Origin: Candidatus Poribacteria bacterium
GTDB taxonomy: Bacteria; Poribacteria; WGA-4E; WGA-3G
NCBI GenBank assembly: GCA_965215265.1
Contig: OZ244048.1
Location: 704,001-768,000 of the forward strand
Length of the DNA: 64,000 nt
Direction: 5' to 3'
Shown here one piece after another: positions 7,821 to 63,156 of the stretch (position 1 is its first letter; the number at the start of each line of letters is the position of its first letter). The notes beneath the pieces are model-generated. The model was not told the DNA's origin and did no database searches. It saw nothing but the letters and a program-made list of their open reading frames with translations. Position numbers and translations under genes: made by a program.

Positions 7821-10463
7821 CTAAAAGAGCCGCCCTTGTTTAATCTTTTCTCTAATCCGTTCCCGCCCAGCGAGAAAACCGTCTAATAGTTTCTTCTCCC
7901 GGCTCTCAATAGGTAAAGTTTCGGAGATCGCTTGTGCAACGCGATAGAACGCCTCCCGATCGCCCCAACCGCTTTCTCTCAGAAGAGCCAGCATCGCATC
8001 CCGTTGGTTCTTTTCCCACAGACGTAAAGCGTGGTGCAGCACGTCGATTAACTCATCACGGTTCGCAAGGTCAGCAAATGTTCGCGCTTGCGGGCCGAGG
8101 ACACGGATAAACTGCTTCTCTTTCATAATAAATCCCTTCCCACCCCACGTTTGTGCAAGGTCAACGCCACACGATTGTGCTAACTTCCGGGCCTCGTCAA
8201 AAAGGACACGCGTCTCCCTATATGCCCAACGCCAAAGGATATAGAAACGGGTGAGGTCTGAAATGTCATCTGTGAACCCGTTGTCCAGAATTTGGTGCAC
8301 CGCGTAATCAGTCGTAATCGTCCGCACATCTTCAAGTAGACGATCCGCACGAATAACCTCTCCCTCAAAGTCCATTACCTTCTCGTATTTACCGAAAACC
8401 TCTATGGCAGCACCGATGGCGGCAATGAAGAAATCCGCACCGCTCAGACCTTCCCGCCAAAGCCGGTGGAGTTTCTTATTAAGGTACGTTGCCATCTCAG
8501 TTTTGATGTCGTTGTAGAAACCCGTCGGTTCGCGTGCCATCTTCCGCGCGCCGATGTAGATAGAAGATGCGAGAACCGCAGATTCTCTCGCACGAAGACG
8601 CGAGACCATCTCCGTATGCAGAGGCCAGGCACCCGTCATAACCAATCCGGAATCGAGGAGCGAGTTAATCAACGTCTCCCAACCCTCAGTCGATTTGTGT
8701 GCATAGACGATGACGACGACACCGCTCGGTTTCAAGACACGATGAATTTCTTGGAAAGCTTGCTTGAGCGACTCCTCAAAAGACTGCTTTCCCGCCTCAA
8801 AACCGCCCGGACCGTGTGAATACGCAACAGTCTCGTTTGTCTTCGGGGTTAACGGCGTAGAGAAGAGCTCAGGATAGACATCGCCTAATGTCCGCTTCAA
8901 CCAAACATAAAAGAAATCAGAGAGATAGGAATACGGCACGTTGTCGTAGTACGGCGGATCGGTAAATACAGCATCAAAGAAGTTGTCCGGATACAGTAAG
9001 TTCGCCGCTGAGGATTGGGTAACGTTAGCCTTATTTGGACTGGCGTATGAACAGTGTGCTATCACTTTCAAATAGGATTGGCCGCCACTCTCAAAACTGC
9101 CAGAAGATCCGCTGAATGGATTAGCTTCTGCATAATCCCAAATCATTGGTAGCGCCTGTCTTGCATAAAGATGTGTAATTGATTCTGAACTGTTAATCCA
9201 TCTCGAAAGTGTATTGCTACAGGCAGCAAGCATGTCTAATCTCAATGCCAAATAACTCGCGACTGCCTTCGAATAGTCCGCATCAATTCCTTCTCCTATC
9301 ATCCGTTGATACGCTGCTCTCACTTTATCTACGAAGGTTATGAGTGCCAACTTTTGCCTGGCGTTGAAGAGATCTCCCCATCTCAACATGCCGTAACCCT
9401 GTATCCGAAAACCTAATGTGCCTCTGGGCGGTAAGGGCTCATCCGGCACCGGGTCCATACCCCACGCCAATTCCAACTCCTCCTGCTTCTCTGCAAGGCA
9501 GGCCTCAGCAGATGCAAAGACAGCCAGGTCTGTATCCGTTGCTCCGCGATAACGTTTCCCTTTCGTGCCACGCTTGTGTGTCACAACGGCAACTATGCGT
9601 GCTCCTGCTTTTCCGTCTTGAAACAGTTTGCGGGTTGTTTTGGCCGCTACTGTAGTTCCACAGACAGGACAGACTGCCACTGCACGTGAGACGGTGCCTT
9701 TTGTTGGATCAAACCCAGCGGGCATCTCTTGATACCCGTTACCGACAATTCTGAATTCCACCTTTCCGTCTTTACTGTAAGGATAGAGCGCGACCTTCTT
9801 TTTTGCTTTCTGTGCCAGCCAGAATTGGCGCATGAGCGGAATTTCTGCACCGCACAATGGATTCTGACACGGTATCGTCCGCGCCCAAATCCAGCCCACT
9901 GGTATTGAACCGTCTGTCTCTTGCAAGTAGAACCTGCCCAATTCCTTTTTTGCTTCTGCAAGTACCCATGCGCTCCATTTCTTGACATCCTCCAGCAATG
10001 GGTTTTTAAACTCCTCAAGCATGCCGTATTTCTGCGGATATTCCAAGGTGCATTTCTGAATTAACACCGCGACGGGGTTGAGATCATTGGAATAGGTTTC
10101 ACATCCAAGCCGCAGTGCCTCCAGCGGAATTGCCCCACCGCCGCCAAAGGAATCGAGCACCTTCGGTGGCACGCCTCCGTTTGCTTCTAGGATTTCTTTC
10201 CGCGCCTTTTCGATCACGACGGCATTTAGCGAACTTTCCTATCTTGAGAGATTGATGATAAAATTCCGTTTCCGGTTCCAATCGTCGGTATCCTTCGGCG
10301 GTGGAATCAAGGCGGCATAGGCAGTCGTGCGTGAGGAGGCGAGCGGGCGTCGCGCCCACCAGATATGAAGTCTAGAGATGTGTCCGTGACGGATATACCG
10401 CTCGTGGGTGGATTCGGCGGAGATTTCTTTGACTGGGAAACTCTCTTCAATCAGACGTTTCAT
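7821..10463 (-). pseudogene. DUF1156 adenine-specific DNA methyltransferase interrupted by an in-frame TAG (10239-10241)
   Basis: ORF 10239-10463 (LHIWWARRPLASSR) is in frame with ORF 7821-10217 (DSFGGGG motif I, DPPYY motif IV, Cys zinc ribbon); junction reads [16 protein letters not shown]. Confidence 0.85.
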
Positions 10464-10631
10464 TTCATTTCCTTAAGGGGTCCAGTACACGGTGCCGTTC
10501 CTGCGAATACAAGAAGATTACAAGCAGAAATATGATGGTACGCAACAACGGTCCGCGAGGGAGACAGTAAACGCGCAGAGGCGGTGAGAGGATTAGGATT
10601 GCACAGACAAGGATGCTGTTTGTGCAAATAC

Positions 10632-10814
10632 TTAACTTATATATAGAGAAGGGGGGGGGTAAATTTGAATTAACTTACCGTTAAAATAGACAAGAGCGTG
10701 ATTCAACGCGGTAGTTTCGCCCTTCCACCTTGAATAGAACTCGTTGAGGAGGTGGAAATCCTGCCCACTCTCTTTTTGGAATGTTGTGGTTTTGTCAGTA
10801 CTACAATGTTTCAT
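10632..10814 (-). CDS. putative leader peptide (60 aa) with C9 tract encoding PPP
   Basis: ATG just downstream of a promoter; C-terminus ALVYFNGKLIQIYPPPSLYIS* aligns without gaps to the leader at 62567-62725; RBS weak. Confidence 0.5.
   Translation of the reverse strand: MKHCSTDKTTTFQKESGQDFHLLNEFYSRWKGETTALNHALVYFNGKLIQIYPPPSLYIS
10651..10659. repeat. G9 homopolymer (C9 on transcribed strand)
   Basis: Direct reading. Confidence 0.95.
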
Positions 10815-35965: not shown

Positions 35966-36051
35966 TGGGCGAGGAGGGACTTGAACCCTCACGAGGCGTA
36001 ACCCCAATAGATCCTAAGTCTATCCTGTCTACCAAATTCCAGCACCCGCCC
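35966..36051 (-). tRNA. tRNA-Leu(TAG)
   Basis: Cloverleaf with long variable arm; ATAGA-CTTAGGA-TCTAT anticodon arm. Confidence 0.95.
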
Positions 36052-36058
36052 AAAACGA

Positions 36059-36131
36059 TGCGCCGTGAAGGAATCGAACCTTCAACCGCCTGATTAAGAG
36101 TCAGATGCTCTGCCGATTGAGCTAACGGCGC
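36059..36131 (-). tRNA. tRNA-Lys(CTT)
   Basis: TCTGA-CTCTTAA-TCAGG anticodon arm; GGTTCGATTCC. Confidence 0.95.
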
Positions 36132-36281
36132 GACTTTTGTATCACTATTCGCCGGGGGATATGGCAGCGGCATTGTACTCATATAATTTTCTGTGTTATT
36201 CTGGGAACAAGTGTCGCCTCCTCCACTTATCAAAAGGGTTTTTCCTCTCAGTGCGTTACGGATTTCTTAAGAATAAAAGAA

Positions 36282-36354
36282 GGTGGATGATGGGATTTGA
36301 ACCCACGCCCACTTGATCCACAGTCAAGTGCTCTACCCCTGAGCTACATCCACC
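36282..36354 (-). tRNA. tRNA-His(GTG)
   Basis: CTTGA-CTGTGGA-TCAAG; encoded G-1:C73. Confidence 0.95.
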
Positions 36355-36379
36355 GCACGATATTTTATCCCCCCTCAAA

Positions 36380-36453
36380 CACGCCTAGCAGGACTCGAAC
36401 CTGCAACCTACAGATTAGAAGTCTGTTGCTCTATCCAATTGAGCTATAGGCGC
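36380..36453 (-). tRNA. tRNA-Arg(TCT)
   Basis: ACAGA-CTTCTAA-TCTGT. Confidence 0.95.
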
Positions 36454-36473
36454 CTATCTATAACGCTGCAGAG

Positions 36474-36548
36474 TCGGGGCGAGAGGATTCGAACCTCCGA
36501 CCTTCTGCTCCCAAAGCAGACGCGCTAGCCGGGCTGCGCTACGCCCCG
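36474..36548 (-). tRNA. tRNA-Pro(TGG)
   Basis: TCTGC-TTTGGGA-GCAGA. Confidence 0.95.
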
Positions 36549-59638: not shown

Positions 59639-59986
59639 CTATTTATAACTGGTTTTTTTGACTAAAGGATAGTTATTACCGTTCCAATATTTTAGGTAAT
59701 CACCATCGTGGAGTGCACGGGGGATACGCGTCTTTTGCCATTGGGGGTTCGCCAGCACAAACCGCTTGTATTCCAGATTCGTCACCTCGTGCGTGTCCAT
59801 GTAGAACGCGTCCACATGCACCGTGTGCACAGGCTGCTCGTCATTACCGGCATCGGCAGCCTCGCTGCCCATCCAGAATTTGCCCCGAGGGATCCGCACC
59901 ATACCATCAAAAGGCGTGGGCGTGTCACCGCAACTCAAAACGGTCACTGCACACGCCAGCACCATTGAAATTCTCTTATCAGACAT
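59639..59986 (-). pseudogene. 3'-truncated FGE-domain lipoprotein paralog
   Basis: Lipobox VLSC; 59665-59905 closely matches 58805-59045; ends at NNYP in AT-rich sequence. Confidence 0.8.
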
Positions 59987-60068
59987 CAAAACGCTCCAAA
60001 TTATTGAAACATTTTTATAAAAACGGAACACTCCGCTCACTCTGCCAGGGCGTTCGGTGCGTGCGTTT

Positions 60069-60350
60069 CTATAGTTCTAACGCCTGTAGGAATGCTTGAA
60101 AACTATCGGCTTTGACGGCTGTCAGCAGCAGTTGCTCGAGGTGTTCTAGGTTAGAAAGCGTTTCGAGTTGCTGCGTGGCAGTGTGTATGTCACAATGAGG
60201 GAATCGCGCATTGAGGACGGCGGTTATATTTTTGATAGCCGTCTGGCACGCCCCTTTTTCTATGCCTCGTTCCATCCCTTGTGCTATGCCTCGTTCCATC
60301 CCTTGTGCTATGCCTCGTTCGAAGAGGAATTCGGCCATTGTCTCTGCCAT
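60069..60350 (-). CDS. putative internally initiated small Rpn protein (RpnS-like, 93 aa)
   Basis: GGAGGT-7nt-ATG in frame inside the rpn gene. Confidence 0.55.
   Translation of the reverse strand: MAETMAEFLFERGIAQGMERGIAQGMERGIEKGACQTAIKNITAVLNARFPHCDIHTATQQLETLSNLEHLEQLLLTAVKADSFQAFLQALEL
60260..60320. repeat. 24-bp tandem repeat x2.5 (ERGIAQGM)
   Basis: CTATGCCTCGTTCCATCCCTTGTG repeated. Confidence 0.92.
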
Positions 60351-61024
60351 AGGTGCTACCTCCATGTCACGCGTATGCCGGGCTACCAGCTCTATCAACT
60401 CTTCCTGTTCTTCCTTTGAACGCCGATGCACAATCAGCGATACCAGATACATTATCGCTTCCCGCCGCTGCCCTGAATCCACCGCATCAAGTGTCGCCAA
60501 CTGCGTCAAAGTCTCCACTAAGGCACGGCTTATAGACGCTTTGTCCGAATCTCCTTGTTGCAGCACTCTCATCAGCCACCCGAACGGATGCGCCGCCTCT
60601 GTCAGCGTCGCCTTGTCTGTGCGGTTCAGATTCAGAAACAGGATGTCAAATCTCGGAACGAATCGAGAGAGCGCCGCAGGCAGATTCATCATCGCCTCAA
60701 GTGTCAGAGGCTTTTCCCACCGCCGCTCCCCCGTGTAAAACACCACGGGCAGAATCGGCGGCAATACACGCTCTCTTCTCGGCACCTTCTCGGCCGCCCA
60801 CCGCCGCCGCTCTGCGTCCCAAATCAGCATCATGTAGAAAAGCACACGAAATCCCATCGTCGCATCTACCGTCGATTGATGTTCAATCAGCAGATAGAGG
60901 AGCAGCTCCTCCGCACCCTCATCACCATCACTTTTGAAGGGCACCCGATACACAATGTCTGCCTCTTGTTCTCGGAGCGTGGCGGGCAGCAGGCTCCTAT
61001 TGATTAGAACCAGCTGCTCAAATT

Positions 61025-61063
61025 GGCTGTGCATTCCCACCTTTTATGCACAGCCTTTTTTTT
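61025..61063. terminator. 10-bp hairpin with T8 on the + strand
   Basis: GGCTGTGCAT/ATGCACAGCC followed by T-run. Confidence 0.6.
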
Positions 61064-61064
61064 A

Positions 61065-61652
61065 TTATTCTACAAACAACGTCGGTTCGCCCAACCCGAC
61101 GTGGTCACAAAAGGTACCTTCTAACTCGTCTACTAAGATTGTGAGTTTATCTGTTCCTTTAGGTATATTGAATTCAATATACGTTCCATTATGTTCAGGG
61201 CGTAATTCTTCCGATTGGTATATTAATTTCTGATCGGAATATGCTAAAAGTCTCACTTTACCGGCACAGGTTGGGTGGGTGATGGCGAAATATGTGCCGA
61301 AGCGAGCCGGTTCTATTTCTGAAATATCATACTTAATAACACTGGGCGCATGCACATATATCCAGTGTTCCCAGACAAACATTTCTGGGAAGTTTTGGAA
61401 AGCTCCAGGTTTTTCTGTTCGTGTGCCATCTGGATATTGCTCCCACACATATTCTCTCCAGCCCCCCCATTCGTCTATCCCATTGACAGGGATTAAAGAA
61501 TTTGCAGAGTTGTGTGTAAGAGTAAGAAGTATATCGGCAGGTGGCGACACTACAGGCATCACCGCTTTTTTTCCCCGATCGCAGCTCGTGATGGAAACAC
61601 ACACCACTGCGATTAGCAACAAGTTCAGAATGATTACACTTTTTCTATTCAT
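61065..61652 (-). CDS. lipoprotein with NPCBM/NEW2-like domain
   Basis: Lipobox ITSC; HWIYVHAPS.I.YDI..IEFNIP.G..L.I.V..DH...GEP.L; AGGAG RBS. Confidence 0.7.
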   Translation of the reverse strand: MNRKSVIILNLLLIAVVCVSITSCDRGKKAVMPVVSPPADILLTLTHNSANSLIPVNGIDEWGGWREYVWEQYPDGTRTEKPGAFQNFPEMFVWEHWIYVHAPSVIKYDISEIEPARFGTYFAITHPTCAGKVRLLAYSDQKLIYQSEELRPEHNGTYIEFNIPKGTDKLTILVDELEGTFCDHVGLGEPTLFVE

Positions 61653-61662
61653 TAAAAACTCC

Positions 61663-62319
61663 TTATTTTGTAGTTGTTGAAGTTCCTGCAAACAATGTCG
61701 GTTCGCCAAAGACGAAGTGGTCACACAAGCTTCTTTCTAACTCGTTTACTTCTATTATGAGTATCTTTGTCCCTAAAGGTATATCAAATTCAATATACGT
61801 TCCTGAATCCTGAAGACGCAATTCTTTGGATTGGTATATATATTTCCGATCTGAAAATGCTAAAATCTGCATCGATGCAGCACCGTTGTTCTCAGGATTG
61901 ACGAGGGCGAAATATGCACCAAACCGAGTCGGTTCTATTCCTGAAATATCATATTTCAGCACGCTGGTTGCATGTGAATATATCCAGTGCTCCCAGAAAT
62001 GCCTTTCTGGAAAGTTTTTGTAAGAAGGTGGTTTTGGTGTTTGTGTGCCATCTGGTCTTTGCTCCCACACCCCCGCAACCCAGCCACTCCATTCAGGGAA
62101 ATGATTGATGGGGATTAAAGAATTTGCAGAGTTGTGTGTAAGCGTAAGGAGAATATCATCGGCAGGTGGTTCCTCGGCAGGTGGTTCTGGTGGCACGACT
62201 ACATACCTCACCTCTTTATTTCCGCCACATGAAGTGAGCGACACACACAACACTGCGATAAGCAACAAGTTAATTATCGTTACCACGATGCCTTTTTTCG
62301 GGTTCATCCAATCTTTCAT
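61663..62319 (-). CDS. lipoprotein with NPCBM/NEW2-like domain (tandem paralog)
   Basis: Lipobox LTSC; shares DILLTLTHNSANSLIP and later blocks with 61065-61652. Confidence 0.7.
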   Translation of the reverse strand: MKDWMNPKKGIVVTIINLLLIAVLCVSLTSCGGNKEVRYVVVPPEPPAEEPPADDILLTLTHNSANSLIPINHFPEWSGWVAGVWEQRPDGTQTPKPPSYKNFPERHFWEHWIYSHATSVLKYDISGIEPTRFGAYFALVNPENNGAASMQILAFSDRKYIYQSKELRLQDSGTYIEFDIPLGTKILIIEVNELERSLCDHFVFGEPTLFAGTSTTTK

Positions 62320-62462
62320 TTCAAAATATCCTTTCGGACGATGTGTCCGTTGTCGATGCGGTTATCGCATCGGTTAGGTTTATAAGTCATTATCGGTTTG
62401 ATTGCGGGCGGGCAGGCGTGCAGGGGCCCGGGGCCTCCGCAAGTGAACACCGCACGCACAAG

Positions 62463-62512
62463 AAAAAAAGCCCGCAACGGCACCCACCGTCCGAGACGGG
62501 AGGCGTGCAGGC
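62463..62512 (-). terminator. putative intrinsic terminator/attenuator inside the leader
   Basis: GCCTGCA..CCGTC-TCG-GACGG..TGCGGGC followed by T7. Confidence 0.5.
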
Positions 62513-62566
62513 ATAAGAAAGCAGCGACGAAGGTAGATGTAGATGCTGCCTGAGTTAATAAAAGGG

Positions 62567-62725
62567 TTAATTTACGTGAAGTAAGGGGGGGGGGGTCAAT
62601 CGTCTTAACAGGGACTTAAAACACACGACAGCACTGCGTACGCACGCGTTCGCACCAAAACTACAACCCCGCACCACGGGGCAGCTCGTTCTACTTATGG
62701 GGTACACGGACTCTCGGTATTTCAT
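62567..62725 (-). CDS. putative leader peptide (52 aa) with C11 tract encoding PPP
   Basis: MKYRES..AVVCFKSLLRRLTPPPLLHVN*; homologous to 10632-10814; too short for the ORF track. Confidence 0.5.
   Translation of the reverse strand: MKYRESVYPISRTSCPVVRGCSFGANACVRSAVVCFKSLLRRLTPPPLLHVN
62585..62595. repeat. G11 homopolymer (C11 on transcribed strand)
   Basis: Direct reading. Confidence 0.95.
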
Positions 62726-62760
62726 CTGTTCGATTTTTCCCTGTCTGATTCAAGTGAATG

Positions 62761-62903
62761 CATTTTATTAGAAAACAACGTTTTTTGTCTGACTCAAAGG
62801 TTAGTTTGCATTATCGCATAACGAACGTTTGTTTGTCAACTCTTTTTTTCCGAAATAAAAAATCAACGAAAACATTCTATCAGAAAACAACGCTTTTTGT
62901 CAA
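62761..62903 (-). promoter_or_regulatory. three related tandem promoter-like units
   Basis: TTGACA-18-TAGAAT (62874-62903), TTGACA-18-GATAAT (62810-62839) and a degenerate copy at 62761-62791. Confidence 0.6.
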
Positions 62904-63156
62904 ACTTTTTTTTGCCTGACTTAGATGTATTGAATCATAACAACGTAAATCTCTGGCGAGATTTGTGCTAAGGCGTTCATTAAAGCAGGCGGTGTTGCGC
63001 TGAAATATACAAATATCTGCCATGGGTGGCGAGCATGGAGAGATAACCCCAAAAAGAAAAGCCGCCGATTACGAAACAGGAAATAGGCGGTTTTTCTATT
63101 AGGAGCTCACAGATGCCTGAGACTCATGTTCTCTGCGTTTCCACTTTTCTCAAATT

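Follow-up and report, generated by a model that had tools for sequence, protein, structure and literature searches.

A run of eleven cytosines (C11) lies inside a short open reading frame between three promoters and a pair of lipoprotein genes in a Candidatus Poribacteria bacterium, and it raises the question of whether the length of such a run could decide if the genes downstream are expressed. The locus belongs to a stretch of 64,000 nucleotides (nt) of contig OZ244048.1 (positions 704,001 to 768,000), referred to here as the window, which was taken from a 4.83-Mb genome assembled as a single contig. All features of the locus are on the minus strand of the window. The answer favoured here, with moderate confidence and on the basis of sequence, is that C11 would be a slipped-strand hypermutable tract in a modular leader, in which tract length would set the frame of an upstream open reading frame (uORF) and hence decide whether ribosomes cross a terminator to a coupled lipoprotein start codon (ON) or stop before it (OFF). 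In this genome, random switching of surface and DNA-defence genes is the probable effect of about 60 similarly built, length-unstable switches. The parts of the locus are the following.

62762..62903, minus strand: three tandem sigma-70-like promoter repeats (62903-62874, 62839-62810 and 62791-62762), scoring 11, 11 and 9 of 12 in a promoter scan
62567..62725, minus strand: uORF of 52 codons by translation, with its ATG 130 nt 5' of the tract and its end reading ..RRLTPPPLLHVN*
62604..62609, minus strand: GTTAAG copy 5' of the tract, forming an inverted pair with the downstream (A/C)TTAAC
62585..62595, minus strand: C11 homopolymer, read as proline codons within the uORF and long enough for slippage (about 8 or more)
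62566..62584, minus strand: early-stop block TTACTTCACGTAAATTAAC, with TAA at 62574-62572 in one frame and TAA at 62569-62567 in another
62463..62512, minus strand: intrinsic terminator predicted by folding, with a stem-loop at 62512-62470 followed by U7 at 62469-62463
62316..62584, minus strand: third, proposed ON frame, in which C9 or C12 extends the uORF by 88 sense codons across the terminator
61663..62319, minus strand: lipoprotein gene 1, 218 amino acids, N-terminus MKDWMNPKKGIVV, lipobox LTSC, NPCBM/NEW2-like domain
61065..61652, minus strand: lipoprotein gene 2, a paralogue of gene 1, lipobox ITSC, NPCBM/NEW2-like domain

The arrangement of these parts is what suggests a switch. The tract is located about 43 codons into the uORF, and the first stop codons past it end at +13 and +18 nt in two frames and at +269 nt in the third. 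This third frame closes with a TGA (62318-62316) that overlaps the lipoprotein ATG (62319-62317) as ATGA, the ATG beginning 265 nt past the tract. From tract to ATG, the ATGA-ending frame holds no stop codon, versus four and five in the other two. The terminator hairpin folds at -24.6 to -27.9 kcal/mol (z = -2.25); it begins 55 nt 3' of the stop codon used in the C11 state, and its U-run starts at +116 from the tract. The preliminary description of this DNA had reported C11, the 52-codon leader with its stop at 62567, the hairpin with U7 at 62463-62512 and the TGA at 62316-62318, and all of these are present. Its claim that the C12 frame is open across the hairpin to the ATGA overlap is likewise correct, with 88 sense codons followed by TGA. 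Upstream, each promoter repeat consists of an A-rich stretch, a TTGACA-like -35 box, an 18-nt spacer and a TG-extended -10 box. Downstream, both lipoprotein reading frames match NPCBM/NEW2 at 31-32 bits (cut-off 23.9), and the two genes are probably co-transcribed.

The leader is not unique to this position. Ten copies of the cassette were found in this genome by BLASTN, and the same search against 30 relatives gave a single weak 55-nt match and nothing else. Tracts of the ten copies read C11, C11, C10, C9, C9, C8, C8, C8, C8 and one interrupted run, CCCCTCCCCC, and paralogous cassettes with near-identical flanks carry different tract lengths, from C8 to C11. The number of promoter repeats also differs among copies. 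Genes 3' of the cassettes encode secreted proteins or lipoproteins in nine cases of ten, the tenth (c3492) being a DNA methyltransferase-like reading frame, a label given by eye from its translation. The N-terminus MKDWMNPKKGIVV occurs in eight of the cassette-linked genes, and the mature parts behind it differ (NPCBM-like, sulfatase-modifying-factor-like and dockerin-like). The 5' block encoding this N-terminus is found at 11 genes, eight with a tract-bearing leader and three without; in two of the three leaderless genes, tandem promoters directly adjoin a short 5' untranslated region (UTR) of about 55 nt. Since genes with the same 5' end exist without the leader, the leader is an added module that puts a terminator between promoter and gene.

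What is conserved within the cassette is its geometry. The uORF ATG and the ATG-to-tract spacing of 130-131 nt are kept in all ten copies, the terminator is present in eight, with its stem showing a U-A to U-G change, and GTTAAG 5' of the tract is kept in nine, the remaining copy having GTTAAT. Variable columns among the ten copies are spread evenly over the codon positions (14/44, 17/43 and 17/43), and the codon-usage score of the leader reading frame is negative, as in non-coding DNA; therefore, the peptide itself is not selected, and only the frame could matter. The ATGA-ending frame contains no stop in four copies and one stop in two, and it is broken by a 1-nt indel in one, while the other two frames have 2-9 stops each. 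The four stop-free leaders measure 127, 265, 436 and 442 nt, lengths that all differ by multiples of three, and for the two long ones (411-417 nt open) no more than 199 and 215 shuffles in 5000 do as well. As assembled, five copies would be OFF by frame reading, including the 62-kb locus, and the uORF passes the terminator position in four.

A leader of the same design stands near the other end of the window.

10463..10814, minus strand: copy 1, with its uORF ATG at 10814, a C9 tract at 10659-10651 and GTTAAGT at 10636-10630

In copy 1, GTTAAGT contains a TAA stop at 10634-10632, and the open frame reaches a TGA overlapping the ATG of a DUF1156 methyltransferase gene at 10463. The leader peptides of the two loci had been described as aligning without gaps; the identities are real, and the likeness at the peptide level is not, as BLASTP finds no similarity between them (E > 100). 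What the two loci have in common instead is a DNA module around the tract. The DUF1156 gene downstream of copy 1 is itself interrupted by an in-frame TAG at 10239-10241 of the window (minus strand), at a position where relatives presumably carry tryptophan; it is either a pseudogene or a gene whose stop is read through.

Beyond the cassette, the design recurs in unrelated sequence. The leader-type set comprises ten motif-bearing, sequence-unrelated families in non-coding DNA, and in nine of them an ATG-started frame begins 115-160 nt upstream and enters the tract. Among 3000 random non-coding positions, 444 had such a frame with its ATG 100-170 nt upstream, and 968 had any such frame of at least 100 nt. 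For every one of the nine families there is at least one length state in which a TAA stop lies no more than 22 nt past the tract. In seven of the nine, another frame reaches within 12 nt of the main start, the other two ending 54 and 90 nt short, with the main starts of three families taken from separate locus analyses. Downstream of these leaders lie genes for Type ISP restriction enzymes (two families), a DUF4007 protein, an EPSP-synthase-family enzyme, a cohesin/dockerin protein, the DUF1156 methylase and the lipoproteins, as well as two ABC-transporter genes. One of the Type ISP leader families, unrelated in sequence to the cassette, has a hairpin followed by T7 at +54 to +105. The per-family shuffle probability of an open leader frame is high (0.45-0.78). 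Because single-locus shuffle rates are high, the case for more than chance rests on recurrence, as seen in the genome-wide and cross-genus census.

The cross-genus part of this census concerns a genome of another genus (G004, genus g4), in which 14 C8-N4-16-GTTAAGT sites occur, 12 of them of leader type. The uORF ATG of these leaders lies at -139 to -298, between -145 and -181 in ten of the twelve, and the TAA follows at +17 or +18. In ten of the twelve, an open frame extends to 34 nt or less from the main start; such frames end 18 nt upstream on a Shine–Dalgarno sequence or as an ATGA overlap. Under a stricter test of nine leaders, eight have at least one fully open frame, with shuffle rates per locus of 0.11-0.46. 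Ten of the twelve also have a hairpin (-25 to -32 kcal/mol) with TTTTGTT or TTTTTGTTG behind it, at +123 to +128. The G004 orthologue of an ABC-transporter gene has an ordinary, unalignable 5' UTR, and no insertion boundary could be drawn from this comparison.

At the scale of the whole genome, 100 C/G tracts of at least 8 were counted, falling into 49 sequence families. Long tracts are over-represented, with 247 C6, 36 C7, 20 C8 and 27 C9, which gives a bump at 8-9, and the window alone has six matches to C8 versus 1.02 expected. The tracts are also tagged by a motif. GTTAA occurs no more than 30 nt downstream on the C strand in 59 of the 100 tracts, compared with 69 of 3152 runs of exactly 5, 7 of 500 of exactly 6 and 3 of 66 of exactly 7. 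Written as (G/A)TTAA(G/C) within 24 nt, the motif accompanies 63 of the 100 tracts and 25 of the 49 families, at a spacing of 6-17 nt after the tract; the TTACTTCACGTAAATTAAC block is the form that it takes in the cassette family (motif at window 62566-62571, minus strand). Conversely, the genome has 409 GTTAAGT sites, and at 51 of them a run of at least 8 C lies within 32 nt upstream; 40 control 7-mers of equal composition gave 10 such cases in all. The gene is on the C strand in nine families and on the G strand in seven, a further nine are non-coding leaders, and GTTAAGT is read in different frames inside one gene family. Given both orientations, varying frames and non-coding leaders, the module is a DNA-level feature.

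These results partly support the earlier idea of a reusable cassette: ten copies exist, nine of ten families have the uORF ATG, seven of nine have a frame running to the main start, and the same plan is found in g4. The genome-wide census of tracts of at least 8, which the preliminary description had proposed, supports it too. Homologous leaders lacking the open shifted frame had been named there as contrary evidence; as seen above, ten of the twelve G004 leaders are open near the main start.

Several other roles for the motif were considered and set aside. A promoter element was rejected, as the distance to the tract varies over 6-17 nt and both orientations relative to genes occur. A purely protein-level motif was rejected on account of the different frames used in one family and of its presence in non-coding leaders. 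Resemblance to dif/Xer sites (TATGTTAA) and a reading of the module as an antisense promoter were both dropped for inconsistent spacing. GC skew was too weak to place the origin, against which the orientation of the module could be compared with the direction of replication.

The distribution of the tagged pattern follows taxonomy in part. Of 18 other genomes of the same family, 10 contain C8-N4-16-GTTAAGT, and none of 12 genomes of three sister families does; a reversed control pattern is absent from all 31 genomes. Two genomes of genus g3 (G015 and G017) have 40 and 70 C9 windows and still no match to the pattern, and four other g3 genomes have no or one C9 window; tract load and motif use thus vary sharply within the family.

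The mechanism that these observations favour can be outlined as follows. The preliminary description had left slippage open at the DNA, transcriptional or ribosomal level. A change of length in the DNA is favoured over the other two because near-identical paralogues differ in tract length. DNA slippage would alter the length of the tract and thereby the reading frame of a uORF whose peptide is not conserved. In the OFF state (C11 and C10, that is, two of the three length classes), the uORF would stop at a TAA 13-18 nt past the tract. This stop lies 55-60 nt before the terminator, so that the hairpin could form, most transcripts would end at 62463-62469, and the lipoproteins would be off. In the ON state (C9 and C12), ribosomes would cross the terminator region and suppress the hairpin, as in pyrBI-type attenuation, and they would end at the TGA overlapping the lipoprotein ATG, which would permit coupled translation. 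The outcome would be stochastic, heritable ON/OFF expression of two surface-directed lipoproteins. Slippage at this locus, translation of the uORF, termination and read-through are all deduced here from the letters of the DNA. Published work offers parallels for the steps: in the parts of the two papers drawn on here, a ribosome translating the pyrL leader blocks formation of the terminator, and polyproline stalls modulate or weaken the coupling (PMC5021804), and termination is almost abolished by a stop codon a few bases away and reaches full activity, at an efficiency of about 0.9, once the distance exceeds 30 bp (PMC4824070).

A number of observations weigh against this mechanism. The only Shine–Dalgarno-like sequence before the uORF is GGGA, which is weak and lies 12 nt 5' of the ATG, and the ATG itself is predicted to be inside a long-range helix of the consensus fold. 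Of nine copies, only four keep the frame fully open to the ATG; in two it ends some 210 nt before reaching it, in one an indel interrupts it, and the remaining two are followed by other sequence. Dinucleotide shuffles also yield open frames, with one or more in 1392 of 5000 (28%) at the 62-kb locus and in 2275 of 5000 for copy 1; for these two loci taken alone, open shifted frames are not rare, contrary to the earlier argument that they are unlikely by chance. Contigs from four runs of four studies have tracts 1, 2 and 3 C shorter at 62585, and the C8-C10 paralogues could yield all of them. Homopolymer lengths may be miscalled, for instance by one nucleotide, in a long-read-style single-contig assembly, and the OFF state at the 62-kb locus is accordingly provisional. 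Finally, TTGAC(C)-Cn-N10-TAAATT could be an internal promoter with the tract as its spacer.

The last point leads to the explanations that compete with the frame switch. If the tract separates a -35 box (TTGACC, whose last two bases begin the tract) from the -10-like TAAATT, its length would tune an internal promoter. TTGAC directly 5' of the tract is indeed kept in nine of ten copies and a TAnnTT hexamer 10 nt past it in eight, and the observed lengths give spacers of 15-19 bp (17 bp for C9 and 19 bp for C11). Such a promoter would, however, fire into the terminator that lies about 90 nt downstream, between it and the gene, and the TTGACC/TAAATT pair is not called by the promoter scan. In the other leader-type families, nothing resembling a -35 hexamer stands at a suitable distance, and the conserved upstream ATG, the early TAA stops and the stop-free frame would be left unexplained, which makes a promoter-spacer switch unlikely. 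An effect at the level of RNA, without translation of the leader, is judged improbable as well. In that case the leader would be a structured RNA or a small RNA of about 290 nt, and the C run would serve as a Rho-loading or pairing element. Poly-C strongly activates Rho, the tract is unpaired in a consensus fold that includes a long-range helix along with conserved hairpins, substitutions lack codon periodicity, and two other families have leaders rich in C and poor in G (C 0.36-0.42, G 0.15-0.18). Against this, changes of 1 nt should matter little to Rho loading, and neither the ATG-started frames that enter the tract in nine of ten families nor the stop-free frame to the start codon would be accounted for. 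Rfam gives no family match in 62250-63000 up to an E-value of 1, save two chance-level hits, and the matches at gathering score are transfer RNAs (tRNAs) only.

The two remaining explanations deny, in different ways, that the length of the tract switches anything. With fixed DNA and programmed recoding, ribosomal -1/+1 slippage on CCC, or slippage of RNA polymerase, would give a constant shifted fraction; one extra C, equal to a -1 shift, would join many split methyltransferase genes, and a small imperfect hairpin stands 3' of the tract in several families. These putative stimulatory hairpins are weak and AT-rich, the needed shift differs by locus (+1, -1 or none), and paralogues with identical flanks differ in tract length, meaning that the DNA changes; recoding is therefore considered very unlikely. 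A neutral, decaying dispersed cassette, its frame open by descent and its tract lengths without regulatory consequence, would fit the loss of the full open frame in five of nine copies, the interrupted tract in one copy and the near-absence of the cassette from the 30 relatives searched. It fits poorly with the same architecture in unrelated sequence families and in another genus, with target genes of classic contingency classes, and with leader-lengthening inserts (138-177 nt) whose lengths are divisible by three and which add no stop to the ON frame. Neutrality is thus held to be quite improbable.

How such tracts come to stand where they do can be seen at two kinds of sites. In comEC (G000:C1:3228993-3229070; L013, L037), the gene is split by a module of about 47 nt that contains C8 and ATTAAGT and has imperfect terminal inverted repeats. 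On either side of the module stands a direct repeat of 18 bp, the two copies agreeing at 17 of 18 positions (99th percentile of controls, 13 bp). All 11 relatives in the match table have uninterrupted ComEC reading frames of 833-889 amino acids, versus 726 here; six aligned relatives are without the insert, and the linker length matches exactly once the module is removed. C9 would restore the frame, and DNA uptake may be phase-variable through this tract. A general search for target-site duplications placed only one of the 49 families, comEC itself, above the 99th-percentile control. At one methyltransferase, by contrast with the comEC insert, the tract formed where it stands: at that site two orthologues read CCACCA or TCATCTCCG, and another two read C7 or C8. 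Among the methyltransferase orthologues (L049, L050-L053), those with the tract encode a conserved Leu-Asn as CTTAAC, twice in two genomes, and the tractless ones use CTCAAC; the TTAA motif next to the tract thus results from a synonymous difference. From the comEC insert and the in-place methyltransferase tract it follows that both insertion and local selection occur.

A broader proposal, which is tentative and on the doubtful side, is that the tract and its flanks (GATTTA - C8-11 - TT - N4-12 - TGTTAAGT) form a lineage-specific portable contingency module, used in either orientation and either inserted, as in comEC, or selected in place, with GTTAAGT perhaps a binding site of a trans-acting slippage, repair or expression factor. 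If this were true, the genome would have an organised system that builds and runs phase-variable switches, uORF-attenuator leaders included.

Tracts inside genes affect DNA methyltransferases (one of Eco57I/TaqI_C type and five N6_N4_Mtase), ComEC and a secreted leucine-rich-repeat family. In the last of these, 13 secreted proteins (for example, at G000:C1 1567085 and 2278266; L064, L065) share a near-identical 5' cassette with C8 or C9 17 nt after the ATG. ON and OFF frames are mixed among them, about half being in frame, and a further copy has C7 (4633676). The Eco57I/TaqI_C-type methyltransferase is split into parts of 321 and 988 amino acids at G000:C1:434253 and in six paralogues (L009), and all seven copies have C8 or C9. 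Their halves would be joined only with C10 or C7; the seven copies are either all OFF or under-called in their homopolymers in the assembly.

Around the lipoprotein genes, two further observations concern the neighbourhood. In five other Poribacteria records, the homologues of the lipoprotein domain form the C-terminal portion of larger proteins, and no tract precedes them. Directly 3' of the two genes (window 59639-61040, minus strand) lie a YhgA/Rpn-like Transposase_31 gene and a truncated sulfatase-modifying-factor-like reading frame, given which the locus may have been rearranged. Elsewhere in the window, five tRNA genes are clustered at 35966-36548 on the minus strand.

The significance of these findings lies first in the organism. 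Work on phase variation has dealt almost exclusively with pathogens that can be cultured, and here a large repertoire is found in the genome of an uncultivated sponge symbiont of the Poribacteria. The approximately 60 tagged tracts concern the 13 leucine-rich-repeat secreted proteins, lipoproteins, at least six DNA methyltransferase families, Type ISP enzymes, ABC transporters and ComEC, and the affected functions are expected to shape host contact, phage defence and DNA uptake. The leader-type switch, if confirmed, would make a gene switchable with its coding sequence untouched, and GTTAAGT beside the tracts suggests a cis element for contingency loci. A full-text literature search, with subscription journals and supplements outside its scope, returned nothing on phase variation in Poribacteria and only classical systems for repeats in leader peptides. 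The combination of hypermutable repeat, uORF, terminator and coupled translation was not found described, and it would represent a variant of known phase variation.

Comparison with known systems places the proposed switch among several of them. Homopolymer tracts are known in the promoter spacers of porA, opc and fim. Like these, the cassette has a C tract between TTGAC and TAnnTT boxes; as a point of difference, a terminator lies downstream of the putative promoter, and the arrangement is absent from the other leader families described here. The comEC module resembles Correia-type miniature inverted-repeat elements in its inverted repeats, its direct-repeat flanks and its absence from orthologues. 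Unlike those elements, flanking repeats are found here at one of 49 families, one methyltransferase has a tract formed in place, and no transposase is linked.

Attenuation provides the second group of parallels. As in tnaC-type uORF attenuation by Rho, as far as the account used here describes it, translation of the upstream reading frame would decide whether transcription continues. The portions of a review on Rho considered here name both uORF attenuation and phase variation via invertible DNA and mention no repeat inside a uORF (PMC12360218). Phase variation linked to Rho in those portions uses invertible elements, and here a homopolymer inside a uORF would serve, with stochastic ON/OFF behaviour in both. 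In the E. coli pyrBI operon (pyrL), according to the published parts cited above, a leader reading frame overlaps an intrinsic terminator, a ribosome close by prevents the hairpin, and the distance from stop codon to terminator sets efficiency, all of which has its counterpart at the 62-kb locus. In contrast to pyrBI, where pausing depends on uridine triphosphate, a heritable change in DNA length would shift the leader frame here, and the leader reading frame continues until it overlaps the start codon of the main gene.

The closest relatives in kind are the contingency loci and phasevarions of Neisseria, Haemophilus, Helicobacter and Campylobacter. There, as in this genome, G/C homopolymers of 8-11 are over-represented, tracts lie in or before surface, restriction-modification methyltransferase and DNA-uptake genes, and ON and OFF states are mixed among paralogues. 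Unlike the loci of those pathogens, the tracts described here belong to an uncultivated sponge-symbiont phylum, many of them reside in dedicated uORFs 130-450 nt before the gene, and they are tagged by a conserved GTTAAGT-type motif.

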